64,000 nt of DNA from Vulcanimicrobiota bacterium. Lineage in GTDB: Bacteria > Vulcanimicrobiota > Vulcanimicrobiia > Eremiobacterales > Eremiobacteraceae. Positions 3,382-39,347 of the stretch are shown one piece after another (within the stretch, counting starts at the first letter, position 1; every line of letters starts with the position of its first letter). The notes below the pieces were generated by a model. It ran no database searches. It was not told where the DNA came from and saw nothing but the letters and a program-made list of their open reading frames with translations. Both the position numbers and the translations under genes were made by a program. The stretch lies in NCBI GenBank assembly GCA_963812135.1, contig CAWETU010000001.1, positions 1,248,001 through 1,312,000 on the forward strand. The letters are read 5' to 3'.

Positions 3382-3999
3382 ATGGATCGCATCATCAACA
3401 TCTGGTCCGACGTCATTTGACCGTTTTGCTACCTCGGCTCAGTTTGGGCCGAAGAAGCGGCGCGAGAATTGCAAGCTCATCTACGTTGGCTTCCCTTCGA
3501 GATTCATCCGGGGACGCCGGCCGAAGGGGCACCGAAGCCATTTCCTCCAGAGGCGTGGCCGCAGGTTCGAGCGAGGCTCGAGCGCTTAGGTCGAGAGGTC
3601 GGACTTCCAATCGACCCGCCAAAACGCAACGTGAATTCGCGTTTCGCACTTGAAACAGCCGAGCTGGTGCGCGCCCAAAAGGACGACGACGCAGCCGGCG
3701 CGTTCTATCACGCCGTTGCGCGCGCATTCTTCACCGATCAGGCCGATATCTCGAAACGCGAGGTCGTCGTCCCGATCGCTGAACGTTTCGGCATCCCCGC
3801 TTCAGACGTGGAGGCCGCCTGGCGCGAGCGCCGGTTTTCTCCAGCCGTTGACGCGTTCATCGAAGAGGCGCACGCGGCCGGCGTTGCCGGCGTTCCAGCA
3901 ATGGGGTGGCCGCATCGACGCGCGATCGTCGGGATGATGCCGGCGGCCGATCTTGTGGCTCGACTTCGAAACGAGGCGCCCGGGGCAGGTCGGCACTAA
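3382..3999 (+). CDS. DsbA/FrnE-family thiol oxidoreductase, probable selenoprotein (UxxC)
   Basis: ATG 3382 reads MDRIINIWSDVI-TGA(3418-3420)-PFCYLG... in frame with ORF 3469..3999 (WLPFEIHP, GVAGVPA); the TGA occupies the first Cys of the family's SDxxCPFC motif. Confidence 0.85.
3421..3460 (+). promoter_or_regulatory. Candidate bacterial SECIS hairpin
   Basis: Directly 3' of the UGA: TCGGCTCA-GTT-TGGGCCGA stem-loop with a G-initiated loop about 22 nt from the UGA; flanks CCGTTTT/AAGAAGCGG can form a lower stem. Confidence 0.6.
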
Positions 4000-29590: not shown

Positions 29591-32500
29591 CTATGGCTTG
29601 CGCGGCGGGAGTTTCGGCGGCGCGAGATTCGGGCGCCGGTCGAATGTCGGCAGCTTCACCGGATTCTTTTTGAGCGCGTCGAGCACGAGTTCCAGCGCCT
29701 TGTCCATCTGCGGATCCTTGCCGTCACGGTAGTCGTGCGGCGCGACGTCGATGTCGTAGTCCGGATCCGTGCCGTGATTCTCGACCTTCCAGCCGACGTC
29801 AGTGAACCAGAAAGAGAACTCCGGCTGCGTCGTTACCGTGCCATCCACGAGCGGGTGCTGTGGCCAAATGCCGATGACGCCACCCCACGTGCGCTTGCCG
29901 ACCAGCGGGCCGAGTTTGTACAGCTTGAAGCAGTGGCTGAAGATGTCGCCGTCCGATCCCGCGAATTGGTTGGTCAAACCGACCAAGGGTCCGGCGACCG
30001 ATTCGTCAGGATAGGGCCGGGGCAGCCCGTGGCGCGGCACATCGTAGCCGACGCGCTTACGCGAAAGCTTCTCGAGCAGCAAGGCAGAGACGTGGCCACC
30101 GCGGTTGTAGCGCGCGTCGACCACCAACGCTTCGCGGTTGAACTCCGCCAGAAATCCGCGATGGAACTCGGCGAACCCAGCTGGTCCCATGTCGGGGATA
30201 TGCACGTACCCGACGCGTCCGCCCGTGTGCTCGTGCACGAGCCGCCTGTTGCTCTCGACCCAATCGCGATAGCGCAGCGAGCGCTCCTCGCGGAGCGTCT
30301 TGACGATGACACGCCGGCGCACGCCCTCGAGATCGAGCATCGTCAGCGCGACCTCGCGGCCGGCATAATTGACCAGCAATGCTTCGACCGACATGGCACG
30401 GCCCACCGCGTGGCCGCCCACGCCGACGATGATCTCGCCTTCACGGACCCGCAAGCCCGGTTCGGCGAGCGGAGAGTCGGTTTCGCGATTCCACGAATCG
30501 CCGCGCAAGATGCGAACGATCTTGTAGCCGCCGCTGCGTTCGTCAAACACGAGGTCCGCGCCGAGCAAGCCGACTTTGTAGACCGGCGGCCGGCGGTAGT
30601 CGCCGAAATATTCGTACGCATGCGACGTGCCCAGTTCGCCCTGCATCTCCCAAAACAGGTCCGAGAGCTCGCCTCGCGTGCGCACGCGCGGCAGCAGCTT
30701 CGCATAGCGGTCGCGTACAACGCTCCAATCGACCTGCGACATCGCCTCATCCCAGAAATGCTCACGCTGCAAGCGCCACGCCTCGTGATACATCTGCTCC
30801 CATTCGTCGCGCGGTTCGACGAGCACGGACACGCGACCGATGTCGACCCAACCCGATCGGCGGTTGGGCTCCTCGGGGACGGGCGGTCGCGCGTCGCCTT
30901 CGCCCAGTGGTTCAAGCGCATCGATGGCCCGCAGCCGGAAGCCCGAACGGTACACAAGGGTGTGGTGATCCGCGGCCAAGCGGATCTCGCCGACCTGGGC
31001 AGCGATGGTGCCGCTGCGCTGCTCGGTGAAATCGTAGGTCAGCAGCGTGCCGTCGTCGTGCGAATCTTCCTTTAGAAAGGAGTGCCCGAGGCTGCCGCGG
31101 ACAGGGAATTGCGTGAACAGGGCGCGCCCAGGCGCGCCGACGATCTGCTCGTAGCGCCCTTCATCGACAGGGAAGCCGATGATGCGCCCGTTGATCCCCT
31201 CGAAGTCGATGTCGATGTTGGGCGGCGGTTTCGGCGATTCGCTCGGTGCGGCATGGATCTGGTCTACCTGGCTGGCTTCTCGAGCTTCGTCGCATTCTGC
31301 GCGCGCGCCGCGACCGAAGGCCCACGGTCGGATTCACGCCGATGCTCAGGGGCGCGCGATTGCATATCCTTACGAGATTGCGAGTCCTCGTTCCGGGATT
31401 GCATCTCGTCCTCGTGCGGTGCCGGCGTCTTGGGCGCGCCGTTGAAGGCGCGCGCCTTGGGCACGAACGGCGACGCGACGTCGGCGCGCAGCGTCACCAA
31501 GAACGGTCGCATGGCGAATGGGAAGCTCAGGTCGAATTGCAGCGCATCGTAGACCGGGATTGAAGTCGCGCGTCGAGAGGAAATAGAGATACTTGCCGTC
31601 GGGATCCCATGCCGGCGCTCGATCGATGCGCAGCGGCGCGGTGACGTCGCGCGCCGTGCCCTCGCCGACGTCGACCACGCGGATCGTCGATTGATCGCTT
31701 TGCGCCGAATACGCGTACGCGACCCAGCGCCCGTCGGGCGACCACGCGAGATCGCGGACGCGCAATCCAGGGCTGCGATCGACGATGCGGGCCTTTCCCG
31801 TGGCCAGGTCGACGATGACCAGCTCGTGCCGATGGTTGGCGAGCGCGACCACATCTGCGACCGGCGAGACGACCAGCTCAGAGATGCGTCCGAGGTCGCC
31901 CTCGCTGGCAGTCGTCGATTGCTGGCTGTCATCCGCCCAATAGATCTCGAGATGCTCGGTGCCGCCTTCATCCGTCACGGCGACGAAGCGCAAGCCGTCG
32001 CGCAGCCATTCCGCATGCCGGTAGCGCACGCGGCTGCCGACGCCGTGGTGCATGACCGCCTCTTCCCACAGCGGCATGGTGAAAGGCTGGCCGCGCGCGA
32101 TCAGCGCGAGCGCGCGCCCGTCGGGGTGCGGGGCGAAGTGTTCGAGCGTCGGCGCTGCGTCGACGAATCGCCGCGCGGTTTGCGTCGTGGTCGATGGCGC
32201 GGTGACGTCGAGCCGCGCCGTCGTATCCGCCTTCGCATCATAAAGGAAGAGATCCGCACCGGCTCCGTAGACGATGCGCTTGCCGTCGGTGGACGGATAG
32301 CGGACGTAGTATTCGTCGTGGTCGGTATGGCGACGGAGCTCCGAACCGTCGACGGCGCACGAGTAAAGATTGCCGATCCCCTCGTGATCGGAGAGGAAAT
32401 ACACGCGCTCGCCGACCCACATCGGGTTGACGGCGTTGCCGTCGACCGAGAGAAGCTTGGAGAACCGACCCTTGCCTATGGGGTCTGCCCACAGCTCACC

Positions 32501-33001
32501 GGCGGTCCCGCCGCGATACCGTTTCCATCGAGCAGGGTCGTTGTTGTTGCGTCCGATGAGCGTGGCGCCGTCGCGCGCGATGTCGATCGACAGCATGTGA
32601 CCGAGTTCGAGCGAACGGGGCGCGCCGCCGTTGCGGCTGACGGCGAAACCCTCGGTGTGGCGGAGAAACGGCGATCGTCCGTCCGTGACGAATAAGATCT
32701 CATCACCGTTTGGATGCCAACCGGCGACGTGACATGTCTCAGAACCGAGATACGTCAGTCGCGTGGCGTCGCCGCCGTCGGCGGACATGACGTAGACTTC
32801 AGGATGCCCTTCTTCGCGCCCCACGAACGCGATGAAGCGGCCGTCCGGCGAGAATCTCGGCGACGAGCACTCGCCGACGCCCGCGGTCAGGCGTCGAGCG
32901 ACGCCCCCGCTAGCCGCAACCGACCACAGATCGTCCTCGCACACGAAGACGATGGTGTCGCCGGCGATCGTCGGCTGACGATAATAGCCCACGTTGCTCA
33001 T
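29591..33001 (-). CDS. Tricorn protease-like S41 peptidase with two compensating frameshifts (~31557 and ~31270-31330)
   Basis: PD40/beta-propeller N-terminus (FVCEDDLW, WKRYRGG), PDZ, catalytic region GYVHIPDM, AGSDGD, GKRTWGGVIG; split over ORFs 31370..33001, 31264..31971, 29591..30979. Confidence 0.88.
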
Positions 33002-33052: not shown

Positions 33053-34066
33053 TTATGAGGGCTGGCTGGGCCGCGGCGCGGGCAACACGGGCGCCGCATC
33101 CTGGGTGCCGGATGTCGGGCGGTTACCCGCAAGCATGTCTTGCCAGGCTTTGCTCGCCGCGGGGGCCACAGACTGCAGCGAGTGGGTCGCATCGGGCTGC
33201 TCGTAGTACGTGACGAGCGCACCGTGCGTGCGTAGCCACGCCGCGAGTTGGCGGACGTAGGTCGCGGCGACGCTCTGATCATTCGCGCCTGCGACCAAGT
33301 AGATCGATTTGCCGCGCACGCGACCTGCGACCGCCTCGCTATCGGTCTCGGCTACAGCCCCTTCGATCACCAGCGTTGCCGTCCAGCGGTCGGGCGATTT
33401 CGCAAGTGCCTTGAACGCAGCGAAGCCGCCAAGCGAATCGCCTGCGAGATAGACGCGCCGGCGATCGATGCGCATCGAGTTTTCGACCTGATCGAGCGCC
33501 TGATACAGATCGGCGATGTTCGCGTCGGAGAGCATGTCATCGCCGCCAGCATACGGCGCGACGACGATGCTGCCGGTCGTGTCTGCCAGCGAGCGTACGA
33601 GTGGAGAGGCGATGACGTCCGCCTCGTTTTGGCCTTTCCCGTGAAGGAAGAAGATGAGCGGCGCAGATTTCGCCGCGGCCGCCGGCGACACGTAGACCGC
33701 CATGACGTAGGGTCGCTTTTGCGGACCGATGGCCGGCAGCAGCGCCGGCGAAGCGCCGCGGATTGCGCCCAAGGTCACGTACGTCTGGTTCGCGAGCTGA
33801 TCGATGAGCGCGGCATCGAGTTCGGCCAGGCGCAGAATCGCTTCTGGATCGCCGCCCGCATTGAGCTGCGCGCGAGCGGCTTGCAAGCGCGTCTTGAGCA
33901 GCGCGCTCATCTGCCAGCGCCCGTCGATCGCGGCCGCGTTCGCGTCGAGCTGATGTTGCGCATCGTCCAAGACGACGCGCGCTTGCTCGATCTGCTCGTT
34001 CGGCGTCGCCGCCGATGCGATGCCGGCCGTGAGCGCGAGCGCGGTGATCAGGCTGAAAAATCTCAT
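33053..34066 (-). CDS. Secreted esterase/alpha-beta hydrolase
   Basis: Signal peptide from ATG 34066; FLHGKG, GDSLGG, AGAND, THS motifs. Confidence 0.78.
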   Translation of the reverse strand: MRFFSLITALALTAGIASAATPNEQIEQARVVLDDAQHQLDANAAAIDGRWQMSALLKTRLQAARAQLNAGGDPEAILRLAELDAALIDQLANQTYVTLGAIRGASPALLPAIGPQKRPYVMAVYVSPAAAAKSAPLIFFLHGKGQNEADVIASPLVRSLADTTGSIVVAPYAGGDDMLSDANIADLYQALDQVENSMRIDRRRVYLAGDSLGGFAAFKALAKSPDRWTATLVIEGAVAETDSEAVAGRVRGKSIYLVAGANDQSVAATYVRQLAAWLRTHGALVTYYEQPDATHSLQSVAPAASKAWQDMLAGNRPTSGTQDAAPVLPAPRPSQPS

Positions 34067-34129
34067 CAGCGCGCGTTGTTTTCGCACGCTCTCGCGGGAT
34101 TCATTTTCACGAATTTCGAATGTAGCCGT

Positions 34130-34690
34130 ATGAAAGTTCTGGCTCACGCAGCCGCGGGGGCGACCACGCTCGCACTCATGTGCGCCCTGGGGTCGAGCGC
34201 CTTGGCGAGCATGCCGGCGGACGGTGCTCGCGCGCCGGCGATCCCCGTGCTGCAGTCCGTGTTCGACGGCAATTACGAATCATTCGATCTTGCAAAGGCG
34301 TCGGCCGGCAGGACCGTGGTGCTCTACTTCTTCCCCAAAGCGTTCACCGAGGGCTGAACGATCGAGGCGAAAGCCTACGCCGCCAGGCTGGCGGACTTCC
34401 AGAAGCTGGGCGCGACGGTCGTCGGGATCTCCAACGATCCGCTCGATGTCTTGAAGAAGTTCCAGACCGAAGAAAAAGCGCCGCAGCGCTTCGTCTCTGA
34501 CCCAAAGAACGACGCCGTCAACGCGTTCGATGTCTCGCTCACCGATCAGAACGAGGTCTATGCCAAACGCGCGACGTTCGTCATCCGCGACGGGACTGTG
34601 CTCCACACGGTATTCGATTGGAGCCCGCTGGGAAACGTCAGCAAGACGCTCGAGTGGCTGACGGCGCATCCACAAAAAGATGCACAGTGA
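34130..34690 (+). CDS. BCP/PrxQ-type peroxiredoxin with signal peptide, probable selenoprotein
   Basis: VVLYFFPKAFTEG-TGA(34355-34357)-TIEAKAY...VVGISND...AKRATFVI; the TGA sits at the peroxidatic Cys of PxxxTxxC and the downstream ORF 34451..34690 is in frame. Confidence 0.88.
34358..34400 (+). promoter_or_regulatory. Candidate bacterial SECIS hairpin
   Basis: CCGCCA-GGC-TGGCGG stem-loop with a G-initiated loop about 29 nt after the UGA. Confidence 0.5.
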
Positions 34691-35211
34691 TAGATAGAGG
34701 CGCTGCGCTCGCGCGCGCAGTCTCTCTGTTCGCTCTGGTGTGCCTCGCGGCGCTTGCCCCTGCCGGCGCGGCGTCGAAGCCGCCGCTTGCAGGTACGCAG
34801 GCGCCTGCCATCGCGCTCCCGATCATCGTCAATGGAAGCGGCAGCTTCGTGCTCGCGCAGCAGCGCGGCCACGGCGTCTATCTGAATTTCTTCTCGTCGT
34901 GGTGCAAGCCGTGCGCGCAAGAGGTCACGACGATCGAAGCCGTCACACGCGAGCTTCCCACCGACGGCCCGCGAGTCGTCGGCATCGCCGTGCTGGATTC
35001 GCAGGCGAGCGCGCTAGCATTTGTCCAAAGTCATGGGGTTCGTTATCCAATCGTCTTCGATCGATCGGGCGACGTCGGAGCTGCGTATCGGCTCACCAAA
35101 CTACCGCTGCACGTGTTCATCGGGCCGGATGGGGTGATCAAGCAGTACGTGGAAGGCGGACCGATCTCGGCGGCGGAGTTGCGCGCGGGGCTGTCGCAGA
35201 TCGCCCACTAG
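34687..35211 (+). CDS. TlpA-family disulfide reductase (exported thioredoxin-like)
   Basis: LNFFSSWCKPC motif, LPLHVFIGPDG; GTG overlaps the upstream TGA (GTGA). Confidence 0.88.
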   Translation: MIDRGAALARAVSLFALVCLAALAPAGAASKPPLAGTQAPAIALPIIVNGSGSFVLAQQRGHGVYLNFFSSWCKPCAQEVTTIEAVTRELPTDGPRVVGIAVLDSQASALAFVQSHGVRYPIVFDRSGDVGAAYRLTKLPLHVFIGPDGVIKQYVEGGPISAAELRAGLSQIAH

Positions 35212-35242: not shown

Positions 35243-36076
35243 ATGTACGATCTGTTCGCACACGCTCCCGGTTGGTTTGTGCTCGCGATCTTCATGCTGG
35301 TGCCGGCGTTGACCGCCGTCGCGCTTCACACGATCTTCCGACGGATCGTCCCCGCGAGCGTCCTCATCCCGCATCATGACGTCGCCGGTTTTCTGGTGGC
35401 GATCGTCGGCGTGCTGTATGCGGTGATGCTCGGGTTTCTCGTCATCACCGTCTGGAATTCGTTCGACCAAGCACAGCGCAATGCAGACGCTGAGACGACC
35501 GCAATCGCGGATGTTCTGTACTTGACTCGGGCGCTGCCGGACCCCGAGCGTTCGCGCGAACGCGAGCTGCTCGGCGCCTACGCGCACGAGGTGCGCGACG
35601 TCGAATGGCCGATGCTGGCGGACGGACAGGAGGACCTTCGGGCGCGCAGGCTCTTAGCCGCGGCGCTGAACGTGATCGCGGCGAGCGAGATCCCGCCCAG
35701 CACCCGACAAACGGAGATGCTGCGGCAATCGTCGTTACGCGATGCGGCGCTCGGCAGCTTCCGCGATGTCACCGCGGAGCGCCGTCTTCGCATCCTCGAC
35801 GCGCAGAGCCAGGTCCAGCCGACGATGTACGTCGCACTGATCGCGGGCGGGCTTATCCTGCTCGCGTTCGTCTTTCTTTTCGGAGTGGACAACTGGATGC
35901 TTCAGTCGGTGATGACGGCGCTCGTGGCTGCGATGATCGGTTTGCAGATCGGCGTCATCTTCGAGATGGATCGCCCGTTTTGGGGTGCGATCCACGTGAC
36001 TTCAGACGCGTGGTCGCTGCTGATCCAAGACAATCATCTGGTGAGGTTTCAGGACACCGGATCGGCACCGCCCTAG
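35243..36076 (+). CDS. Membrane protein (DUF4239-like)
   Basis: GVLYAVMLGFLVITVW, RRLR, MDRPFWG motifs; four TM helices. Confidence 0.7.
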   Translation: MYDLFAHAPGWFVLAIFMLVPALTAVALHTIFRRIVPASVLIPHHDVAGFLVAIVGVLYAVMLGFLVITVWNSFDQAQRNADAETTAIADVLYLTRALPDPERSRERELLGAYAHEVRDVEWPMLADGQEDLRARRLLAAALNVIAASEIPPSTRQTEMLRQSSLRDAALGSFRDVTAERRLRILDAQSQVQPTMYVALIAGGLILLAFVFLFGVDNWMLQSVMTALVAAMIGLQIGVIFEMDRPFWGAIHVTSDAWSLLIQDNHLVRFQDTGSAPP

Positions 36077-37361: not shown

Positions 37362-39347
37362 GTGACGATCAATCAAATGGATCTGGCTTCACCGGTTTCA
37401 CCGGTTGAGACGCGCGAAGAGCTCCTTTACCTGCTCACCAGAGCGTCGGAATTGGAGCACAATCTCGCCTGCGTCTATTTGTACGCCGGCTACTCGCTGA
37501 AGAATCATGTCGATGAGGGCGGTGTGACGCCGGAAGAGCTGGAGATCGTGCGCACGTGGAAGCGCAATCTCGCCGGCGTCGCCGTCGAGGAGATGCTTCA
37601 TCTCGCGCAAGTCTCAAATATCCTGACGGCGGTCGGGGGCGCTCCGCATTTCGCCCGCTCGAACTTCCCGATGCCTGCCTCGACCTATCCCTTCGGCATC
37701 GCGCTGACGCTTGAGCCGTTCTCAAAGGCGTTGATCGAGCGGTTCGTATGCTACGAGCTGCCGGAAAAGGGCGTCCTACCGGAGGATCGCGCAGCCTTCT
37801 ATGACGAGATCCGGGGCCGCGTGGCGGTTGACTTCGACCGAGTCGAGGCGATTCGCGCGCAAAACGCGCTCGAGCCATTCGACATCGACTTCCGCACCGT
37901 CGGCGAATTCTATCATAAGATCGAGAGCGCGTTCCGCTGCATTCCGCAGGAACGCCTTTTCATCGGGCCCCCGGAAGCGCAAGCGAATCCCAAGTATCTC
38001 GACCTGCCGGGTGAGCTGGTCGAGGTGACGGACGCAGCTTCGGCGGCTCGCGCCATCGAGATGATCATCGAACAGGGAGAGTCACCGACCAGCGAACACC
38101 CCGACGCGCACTTCGTGGTCTTCGACTCGATTCGCAAAGAATACGAAGACCTGTGCGCGCGCGCCAAAGCGGCCGGCAGAGTTTTCGATCCGGTGCGTCC
38201 CCTGATCAGCAACCCGACGACTCGCGGCTACGCCGACGCTCCCGGTTCGAACCGCATCACGGATGCGACCGCGCAAGAGCTTGCGGAGCTGTTCAACGGG
38301 ACATACGATTTGATGCTGATGATGCTCTTGCGGTTCTTCGCTCATGAAGGCGAGACTGAAGAGCAGTTCCGGTTACTCGCGCGCGGCACTTTGCGCATCA
38401 TGGCATCGGTGCTGCGCCCGCTCGGCGAGGCGCTCGCGAAGACACCCGCAGGACCGGAGTACCCCGGCAAAGCCGCCGGTCCCGGGTTTGGATTCAACCG
38501 CAGCATCCATCTGCTGTCGCATCGGCAGTCGGCGTGGATATTCTTCCTTGAACGGCTCTATGATCTGGCGGCGCGGTTGACGCAGCTGGCCGACGACGCG
38601 GCGATGCCGCCGGAGGTGCAGGAGGCGGCGGCCGCGCTCGAATCGGTGGCCGAGCACCTGACGCCATTCATCCCGCAGGACTTCGCGCAGACGATCCGCG
38701 GCAGCTGCACCGAACGCAACGCGCGTACAAGCGTTCGTCCGGAGTTGAACGGGCCGTTGATCGTCCGCAATCTGCGTAACCTCACCAATTCAAAGGGCGA
38801 GGTCTTGCGAACCCGTCCGATCGTCGCGCTCTGCCGCTGCGGAGGATCGAATCTCAAACCGTATTGCGACGGCACGCATGCGCGCAACGGCTTCGCGAGC
38901 GCGAAATCTCCCAACCGGACGAAGGATCGCTTGGACAGCTACGAGGGGGTTGGGATCACGGTGCGTGACAACCGCGGCACGTGCTGCCATTTCGGGAACT
39001 GCACGGACCATTTGCCGCAGGTGTTCCATGCGACCGGCGAGCCGTTCGTGACGGCGAAAGGCGCAGATGCAGATACCATCGAGGCCATCGTGCGCCAATG
39101 CCCGTCAGGCGCCCTCGGCTTTGTCCGCAACGGAACCGCCTATCAAGGCGAGCAGCGCGAGCCGGGGATCTACGTCGCGAACAACGCGAGCTATTATGTC
39201 CGCGGTGGGATTGAGTTGGAGGGTGAGCTGAAGAATGAGGGCGCCAACAGCGAACACTACGCGCTCTGTCGCTGTGGCCAATCGAAGAACAAGCCGTTCT
39301 GCGATGGGACCCATTGGTGGGTCAAGTTCAACGACCCCGATAACTAG
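37362..39347 (+). CDS. Ferritin-like (VioB/RebD-type) domain fused to CDGSH - divergent 4Fe-4S - CDGSH iron-sulfur module
   Basis: ELEH...YLYA, EEMLH, IIEQGE, HF motifs; two LCRCGxSxxKPxCDGTH motifs flanking CCHFGNC...CPSGAL. Confidence 0.85.
   Translation: MTINQMDLASPVSPVETREELLYLLTRASELEHNLACVYLYAGYSLKNHVDEGGVTPEELEIVRTWKRNLAGVAVEEMLHLAQVSNILTAVGGAPHFARSNFPMPASTYPFGIALTLEPFSKALIERFVCYELPEKGVLPEDRAAFYDEIRGRVAVDFDRVEAIRAQNALEPFDIDFRTVGEFYHKIESAFRCIPQERLFIGPPEAQANPKYLDLPGELVEVTDAASAARAIEMIIEQGESPTSEHPDAHFVVFDSIRKEYEDLCARAKAAGRVFDPVRPLISNPTTRGYADAPGSNRITDATAQELAELFNGTYDLMLMMLLRFFAHEGETEEQFRLLARGTLRIMASVLRPLGEALAKTPAGPEYPGKAAGPGFGFNRSIHLLSHRQSAWIFFLERLYDLAARLTQLADDAAMPPEVQEAAAALESVAEHLTPFIPQDFAQTIRGSCTERNARTSVRPELNGPLIVRNLRNLTNSKGEVLRTRPIVALCRCGGSNLKPYCDGTHARNGFASAKSPNRTKDRLDSYEGVGITVRDNRGTCCHFGNCTDHLPQVFHATGEPFVTAKGADADTIEAIVRQCPSGALGFVRNGTAYQGEQREPGIYVANNASYYVRGGIELEGELKNEGANSEHYALCRCGQSKNKPFCDGTHWWVKFNDPDN

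Follow-up and report, generated by a model that had tools for sequence, protein, structure and literature searches.

Peroxiredoxins of the 1-Cys type are reduced directly by a partner, and selenocysteine (Sec) glutathione peroxidases without a resolving cysteine are also known. For the cell envelope of Caulobacter crescentus a pathway has been described which leads from ScsB over TlpA (CC2210) to the peroxiredoxin PprX (CC1673), with TlpA reducing PprX (Cho et al. 2012, PMC3322552, accessible part). Bacterial Sec-peroxiredoxins with a TxxU motif are likewise an established family, which includes PrxU of Eubacterium acidaminophilum (PMC13188914, accessible part); the words periplasm, signal peptide, secreted, exported and extracytoplasmic are absent from the text available of that source. 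Sec-peroxiredoxins and the envelope relay of TlpA and PprX are each known, and it is their combination that appears to be new at the locus described here. A literature search, with subscription papers outside its range, found neither an exported Sec-peroxiredoxin nor its combination with a TlpA relay described, and no article on the selenoproteins of this lineage.

The locus is part of a stretch of 64,000 nucleotides from a Vulcanimicrobiota bacterium (the window; positions without a contig name refer to it). In our main reading, to which we assign a probability of about 0.68, one gene gives rise to an exported Sec-peroxiredoxin that is recycled by the neighbouring TlpA, itself fed via CcdA, and that removes peroxide in the envelope. 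If this is true, a selenoenzyme of soil bacteria takes part in peroxide defence beyond their cytoplasmic membrane, and the combination of peroxiredoxin and TlpA represents a natural test case for the recycling of selenium enzymes of this kind. In the protein databases the Sec-peroxiredoxin genes are stored as fragments of 77-108 amino acids beginning after the UGA, and so the enzyme was missed and its localisation lost.

With the in-frame TGA at 34355-34357 (plus strand) read as Sec, positions 34130-34690 of the plus strand form a single intact open reading frame of 186 amino acids, which is interrupted at this triplet in a translation with table 11. The active site consists of P69-K-A-F-T73-E-G-U76 (PxxxTxxC/U) and the conserved Arg147. 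Homolog alignment and conservation in the family place the TGA on the catalytic cysteine, as the initial annotation had claimed; its remark that the mature domain has no other cysteine was also correct, the sole one (C18) being located in the signal-like N-terminus. The protein reaches 87 bits against Pfam AhpC-TSA (cut-off 26), its nearest solved relatives (the top PDB matches) are BCP proteins, and its best NCBIfam matches are BCP/PrxQ models, with scores below the equivalog cut-offs. Profiles, alignment and the conserved UGA thus point to a BCP/PrxQ-type peroxiredoxin, a predicted peroxidase with Sec76 as peroxidatic residue and no resolving cysteine. As in PrxU (NF040737), the peroxidatic residue of its AhpC/TSA domain is Sec and a selenocysteine insertion element (SECIS) lies just past the UGA; unlike PrxU the protein is of the PrxQ type and predicted to be exported, and it scores 35.1 bits against that model, far from the curated cut-off of 270. 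No sigma-70-like promoter was found for the peroxiredoxin/TlpA locus, and the RNA runs hold short contigs of relatives only, in which neither transcription nor co-transcription is visible. On one side the locus is flanked by a divergent gene for an exported alpha/beta hydrolase (33053-34068, minus strand); behind TlpA follows a bestrophin-like membrane gene (35243-36076, plus strand), which is near the locus in three of four congeners. Neither of the two is seen in the short flanks of the loci of other genera.

The N-terminus had been noted to look like a signal peptide, and the pattern is present here as well as in all 30 orthologous loci by hydropathy and charge. These N-termini are extended by 20-35 residues, carry one to three basic residues together with a hydrophobic core and finish in small residues; none of the 30 matches a twin-arginine motif or a lipobox. 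In the protein under study the predicted Sec-pathway signal peptide (34130-34207, plus strand) has a basic start, a hydrophobic core and an Ala-x-Ala end at about residue 26. The BCP paralog of the same genome (C1:357011) is without an N-terminal extension. From the conserved pattern the peroxiredoxin is presumed to be exported.

The hairpin which had been reported to follow the UGA turned out to be two small ones. Hairpin 1 (34365-34376, plus strand) begins 7 nt after the UGA and has a 4-bp stem with a GNRA-type tetraloop. Hairpin 2 (34380-34394, plus strand), the putative SECIS, lies 27 nt after the UGA and consists of a 5-bp G/C stem with the loop A-G-G/U-Y-U. The bacterial SECIS consensus comprises a loop of 3-9 nt with a G within its first two positions, a stem of 4-16 bp, a distance of 16-37 nt from the UGA and an energy of -7.5 or lower (PMC13188914, accessible part); hairpin 2 agrees with it by a 5-nt loop, 5-6 bp, 27 nt and -8.6 kcal/mol. 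Its stem is whole in 23/23 UGA loci and broken in 7/7 Cys loci. The stem of hairpin 1 is intact in 21 of the 23 UGA loci and broken in all seven Cys loci, and its GNRA loop, present in 20/23 UGA loci, is kept through changes of Lys to Arg or Gln in four; hairpin 1 also exists in both loci of family f3 and adjoins the SECIS in the consensus fold. Among the 23 UGA loci the third base is at least 90 % identical in 8/9 conserved degenerate columns between codons -1 and +12 compared with 1/38 elsewhere in the domain, a difference whose p value of 4e-5 is overstated because kin are not independent. A fixed AGG encodes Arg in the SECIS region (20/20 codons, against 2.4 % genome-wide), and 18 of 23 Leu codons there are TTG (15 % genome-wide); in the Cys forms the third-base constraint after the catalytic codon is lost. 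At residues +8 to +12 two forms occur in 23 Sec sequences versus 13 forms in 21 Cys sequences, as expected if the RNA imposes them. The folding energy after the UGA is not significant in four windows (z -0.76 to -1.83), and the evidence for both predicted hairpins is conservation rather than folding energy. Covariation was found neither among the first 23 rows nor in hairpin 1. With 11 rows added, hairpin 2 contains one pair with a double change from C-G to U-A, in two rows of separate lineages among 33 distinct ones, a weak signal because slid controls reach similar scores.

The distribution of the UGA agrees with its reading as a predicted Sec codon. Within the own family (f1, 32 genomes including this one) the peroxiredoxin ortholog is present in 24 genomes, of which 23 have TGA as the catalytic codon and one, G017, has TGC; leaving out the unpublished genomes G010, G013 and G016, the count is 20/21. 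Five of the eight genomes lacking the ortholog are less than 90 % complete. Out of 488 metagenome matches the best 80 include ten members of the peroxiredoxin clade, nine with TGA and one with TGC. Family f3 has the TGA form in two of three genomes. The sister family f2 possesses a homolog in 187/207 genomes, without an internal stop in any among the 131 rows listed, and selA in 26 of the 28 genomes tested. Named relatives of the clade are labelled Eremiobacteraceae or Vulcanimicrobiota. Absence of the sel genes had been put forward in the initial annotation as an argument that would speak against Sec. In this 98 % complete genome selA (C1:622181-623509), selB (C1:620259-622109), selD (C1:531860-532789) and tRNA-Sec (selC, C1:612205-612298) are all present above curated cut-offs; the active site of SelD contains Cys, not Sec. 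In G022, an assembly of 370 contigs, the UGA gene and selB are present and neither selA nor tRNA-Sec gave a match. A 94-nt 'tRNA-Cys' predicted by ARAGORN (G000:C1:1985591-1985684, minus strand) resembles coding sequence and is probably false.

A nonsense mutation, a pseudogene or a sequence error at the UGA may be considered in view of the apparent frameshifts elsewhere in the assembly (in the tricorn protease, 29591-33001, and in the BCP paralog). This explanation can practically be regarded as refuted by a TGA that is common to 23 loci of 10 genus codes and is conserved along with its flanks on both sides, and by a contig of an independent assembly that matches the UGA region. This contig of 177 nt belongs to run X1, possibly the source sample, and covers the UGA without a difference; another contig covers the junction between peroxiredoxin and TlpA. 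The earlier judgement that the TGA is not a random error, a sporadic nonsense mutation included, is thereby borne out: it is kept in 23/24 family loci. Decoding of the UGA as Cys or Trp by a suppressor is very improbable, too. The only tRNA with a UCA anticodon found at default stringency is tRNA-Sec, and a SECIS of the consensus type that is under selection argues against any such suppressor.

The absence of a resolving cysteine separates the clade from its relatives. No cysteine occurs in the domain of 24/24 family loci and 20/20 Cys proteins of the clade; the outgroup has exactly one downstream cysteine in 70/70 genome loci, 6/6 f2 loci and 12/12 proteins, and so do the 70 outgroup metagenome loci among the best 80 of 488 matches. 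In the aligned rows this resolving cysteine is located 40 residues past the catalytic one, a position occupied by Lys116 in the Sec-peroxiredoxin. A tree of 79 rows, drawn up without L059-L068 and 53 of the 70 outgroup loci, supports the clade free of resolving cysteines with 100/100. When the catalytic and SECIS-coding columns are masked, the Cys forms interleave with the Sec forms and at least three switches are forced; a tree in which the 21 Cys forms are held together is rejected (p-AU 3e-5, for a group named after the first tree had been seen). Since the deepest branches are Sec forms when the tree is rooted with the 2-Cys outgroup, Sec was most likely gained when the resolving cysteine was lost, or close to that event. 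Within the clade there may have been three reversions, or one reversion and regains by recombination. Position +6 is Thr or Val in all 21 Cys forms and Ala in all 23 Sec forms. Changes from Sec to Cys are called rare (PMC1794560, accessible part). Loss of the Sec machinery as a cause of the Cys form was ruled out, as G017 has selA, selB and tRNA-Sec. The Cys forms are over-represented in the protein databases because the Sec forms are stored as fragments. Judged by these alignments and trees, the enzyme is a member of a PprX-like, presumably exported peroxiredoxin clade with Eremiobacterota-type relatives that would have lost the resolving cysteine and passed through at least three switches between Sec and Cys.

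The stop codon of the peroxiredoxin gene (TGA, 34688-34690) overlaps the GTG at 34687 (GTGA) of a WCKPC TlpA gene, as had been noticed before. This gene (34687-35211, plus strand) encodes a predicted exported TlpA/ResA-like thiol-disulfide reductase of 174 amino acids with a hydrophobic, signal-like N-terminal segment of its own; the assignment is based on profiles and on the ResA fold of a fused homolog. Like the ResA/TlpA/CcmG reductases, of which Bacillus subtilis ResA (1su9) is an example, the partner is a CxxC thioredoxin fold protein predicted to be exported. It scores 54 bits against Redoxin (cut-off 26.6), and unlike the named families it stays below the curated cut-offs of the ResA, DsbE and TlpA models and forms a subfamily of this lineage that is bound to the gene of the peroxiredoxin. 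Close orthologs (E 1e-31 or better) were found in 19 of 32 family genomes, in every case either immediately behind the peroxiredoxin or a tandem copy of it, or fused to it; the eight family genomes without peroxiredoxin have none. Counted by locus, TlpA is beside or fused at 19/22 assessable family UGA loci (17/20 without the unpublished genomes). In all 16 directly adjacent split loci TlpA lies in a frame overlapping the stop, with an ATG, GTG or TTG on the stop in 11. In two congeners (G005 and G006) peroxiredoxin and TlpA constitute a single reading frame, joined by a short linker and lacking a second signal. Fragments of such fusions, starting after the UGA position, make up five database clusters. 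TlpA still adjoins the Cys-form peroxiredoxin of locus L151. In genus g3 (four genomes with three UGA loci and one Cys locus) a thioesterase gene takes the place of TlpA and no close TlpA ortholog was found; L146 shows the same picture, judged by its sequence. The stop-start overlap also exists with this thioesterase neighbour, so that the overlap alone says little. The TlpA subfamily was found only beside the peroxiredoxin (19/32 genomes), and two congeners have the two proteins fused; TlpA is therefore the likely reductant of the peroxiredoxin. The putative role of 'dedicated reductant' proposed in the initial annotation is supported by strict co-occurrence and natural fusions; the TlpA gene is missing, however, at 3/22 assessable family UGA loci and at 2/2 UGA loci of f3.

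Structure prediction of the fusion, with Cys standing for Sec, resulted in two confident domains, one PrxQ-like and one ResA-like (pLDDT 91), without a fixed arrangement (pTM 0.54). The predicted TlpA domain superimposes on B. subtilis ResA (PDB 1su9) with a TM score of 0.92 by target length. Alignment A3 was left out of the folding, for it placed peroxiredoxin rows on the TlpA domain. A prediction of the complex of the L151 Cys peroxiredoxin and its TlpA with alignments scored 0.01 against a mark of 0.32, which counts as 'no answer'. A -1 frameshift joining the split genes was rejected: each separate TlpA has its own signal-like segment, and the true fusions are without it. In L147 (139-681) and in L032/L259 of the unpublished genome G010 the Sec-peroxiredoxin is duplicated in tandem before TlpA, with a SECIS in both copies.

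A TlpA outside the membrane would depend on a membrane electron donor. The N-terminal domain of DsbD/ScsB (DsbD_N) has no match in the 98 % complete genome, and the model does match the Caulobacter control. Two CcdA-type genes only were found in the genome. One (C1:75035-75826; L050:1273-2067, minus strand) has kept both Cys motifs, with the first Cys-bearing helix moved to the C-terminus; this permuted order is shared by the matches in family f1 and by one f3 genome, and the normal order is present in 11 of 15 f2 genomes. The second CcdA-like protein (C1:169204-169800; L051:1483-2166, minus strand) has no cysteine in either catalytic motif. The permuted CcdA is the likely electron donor.

The features shared with the Caulobacter pathway are a peroxiredoxin of the BCP/PrxQ type, which is exported with a signal sequence in Caulobacter and predicted to be exported here, the active site PxxxTxxC with Arg, a TlpA-type partner and the need for a membrane electron donor; the likeness to CC1673 refers to its described features, as its sequence is given only in a figure. 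Unlike PprX, the new enzyme has Sec in place of Cys, the resolving cysteine of the outgroup is gone and TlpA is adjacent or fused, and unlike in the ScsB pathway the genome contains CcdA-type proteins only and no DsbD/ScsB N-terminal domain. As the resolving cysteine and the ScsB features are missing, the system was not filed as PprX. With the 1-Cys peroxiredoxins and the Sec glutathione peroxidases it has in common a single catalytic chalcogen and a resolving thiol that would come from outside the chain; it differs from both in that a TlpA, predicted to be exported, is proposed to provide this thiol and that the clade contains Sec as well as Cys forms.

The following course of events is proposed. 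SelB bound to the hairpin at 34380-34394 would deliver Sec-tRNA to the UGA, as suggested by conservation and by the sel genes, and the signal peptide would export the chain. From the chemistry of the family, Sec76 is expected to attack peroxide and to become a selenenic acid. With no resolving cysteine in the chain, the first cysteine of the TlpA CxxC motif would attack the oxidised selenium under formation of a Se-S link, which the second cysteine would release, and CcdA, fed by cytoplasmic thioredoxin, would re-reduce the oxidised TlpA across the membrane. The net result would be removal of peroxide from the envelope by a selenium version of the Caulobacter relay of TlpA and PprX in which the partner takes over the resolving step. 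The weakest step is the presumed direct reduction of oxidised Sec by TlpA, since thioredoxin was unable to reduce Sec forms of MsrB devoid of a resolving cysteine (PMC1278935, accessible part). Ribosome stalling by an RNA element has a eukaryotic counterpart in the Sec redefinition element, to which a stalling tetraloop hairpin may be likened. A more far-reaching proposal, which we consider tentative and on the whole rather doubtful, joins these parts: selenium was gained, the resolving cysteine given up, a private TlpA became the outside thiol that reduces the selenenic acid directly, and this one-residue chemistry was kept through the switches between Sec and Cys, with a two-part recoding RNA in which a ribosome-stalling tetraloop hairpin 7 nt after the UGA is stacked on the SelB-binding hairpin.

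An unlikely but serious alternative accepts a real and exported Sec-peroxiredoxin and has it recycled in another way, by a small thiol, an intersubunit diselenide or Se-S bridge, or another TlpA paralog, with the neighbouring TlpA being co-regulated or acting at a later step. It would account for the loci without a TlpA neighbour (3/22 in the family, 2/2 in f3), the tandem duplicates in L147 and G010 could pair with each other, and this genome contains no fewer than four further TlpA-like genes. A precedent is the engineered Sec form of mammalian MsrB without resolving cysteine, which was not reducible by thioredoxin (PMC1278935, accessible part). Recycling by other means fits poorly with a TlpA subfamily that is never found away from the peroxiredoxin (19/19), that is fused to it in two congeners and that stays beside the Cys form in L151. 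Clearly less probable is that the pair works as a redox relay or sensor rather than as a bulk scavenger, with oxidising equivalents derived from peroxide being passed on to TlpA or to substrates in the envelope. Without a resolving cysteine every turnover would oxidise a partner, and deletion of pprX did not make Caulobacter sensitive to peroxide (PMC3322552, accessible part). The full catalytic set of Pro, Thr, Sec and Arg argues against a mere sensor, as do the peroxidase activity of PprX in vitro (PMC3322552, accessible part) and the lack of any regulator seen beside the pair within the window. Recycling by the neighbouring TlpA remains the preferred reading.

The initial annotation had pointed to a second TGA at a catalytic cysteine in the window, and this one is real: a separate DsbA-family gene (3382-3999, plus strand) is a Sec candidate in which a SECIS-like hairpin comes after the TGA (3418-3420). 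A copy with 89 % identity and one TGA is present in G025 of another genus, the only one of 31 family genomes to have it; the gene is patchy in its distribution and was possibly transferred. At least six UGA candidates exist in the genome, in a scan that was not exhaustive and with not all of them validated. The others comprise the BCP paralog (C1:357011, within 356882-357270), whose reading frame is disrupted some 45 codons past the UGA by error or as a pseudogene, a motif-based candidate at C1:445690 that we take to be formate dehydrogenase alpha-like, a peroxiredoxin-like candidate (C1:1200994, minus strand) and a thioredoxin-TPR protein with UxxC (C1:1323436). All six show, 16-27 nt past the UGA, a hairpin whose second loop position is G. 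This pattern cannot validate them because the hairpin filter was fitted on them, and genome-wide 2098 of 70458 TGA triplets pass the filter; two looser scans gave mostly noise. The suggested comparison of TGA with Cys over the whole genome thus yielded candidates, and their shared hairpin pattern carries no independent weight. With six candidates the threshold for a 'selenoprotein-rich' genome, given as six (PMC1794560, accessible part), is reached, so that this earlier characterisation is borderline as long as not all are validated.

Two further genes of the window may be mentioned. The tricorn-like protease gene (29591-33001, minus strand) is split into two open reading frames near 31400-31070, apparently by frameshifts. 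At 37362-39347 (plus strand) a protein of 661 amino acids is encoded which combines a ferritin-like domain, two CDGSH iron-sulfur domains and a Fer4_19 domain.
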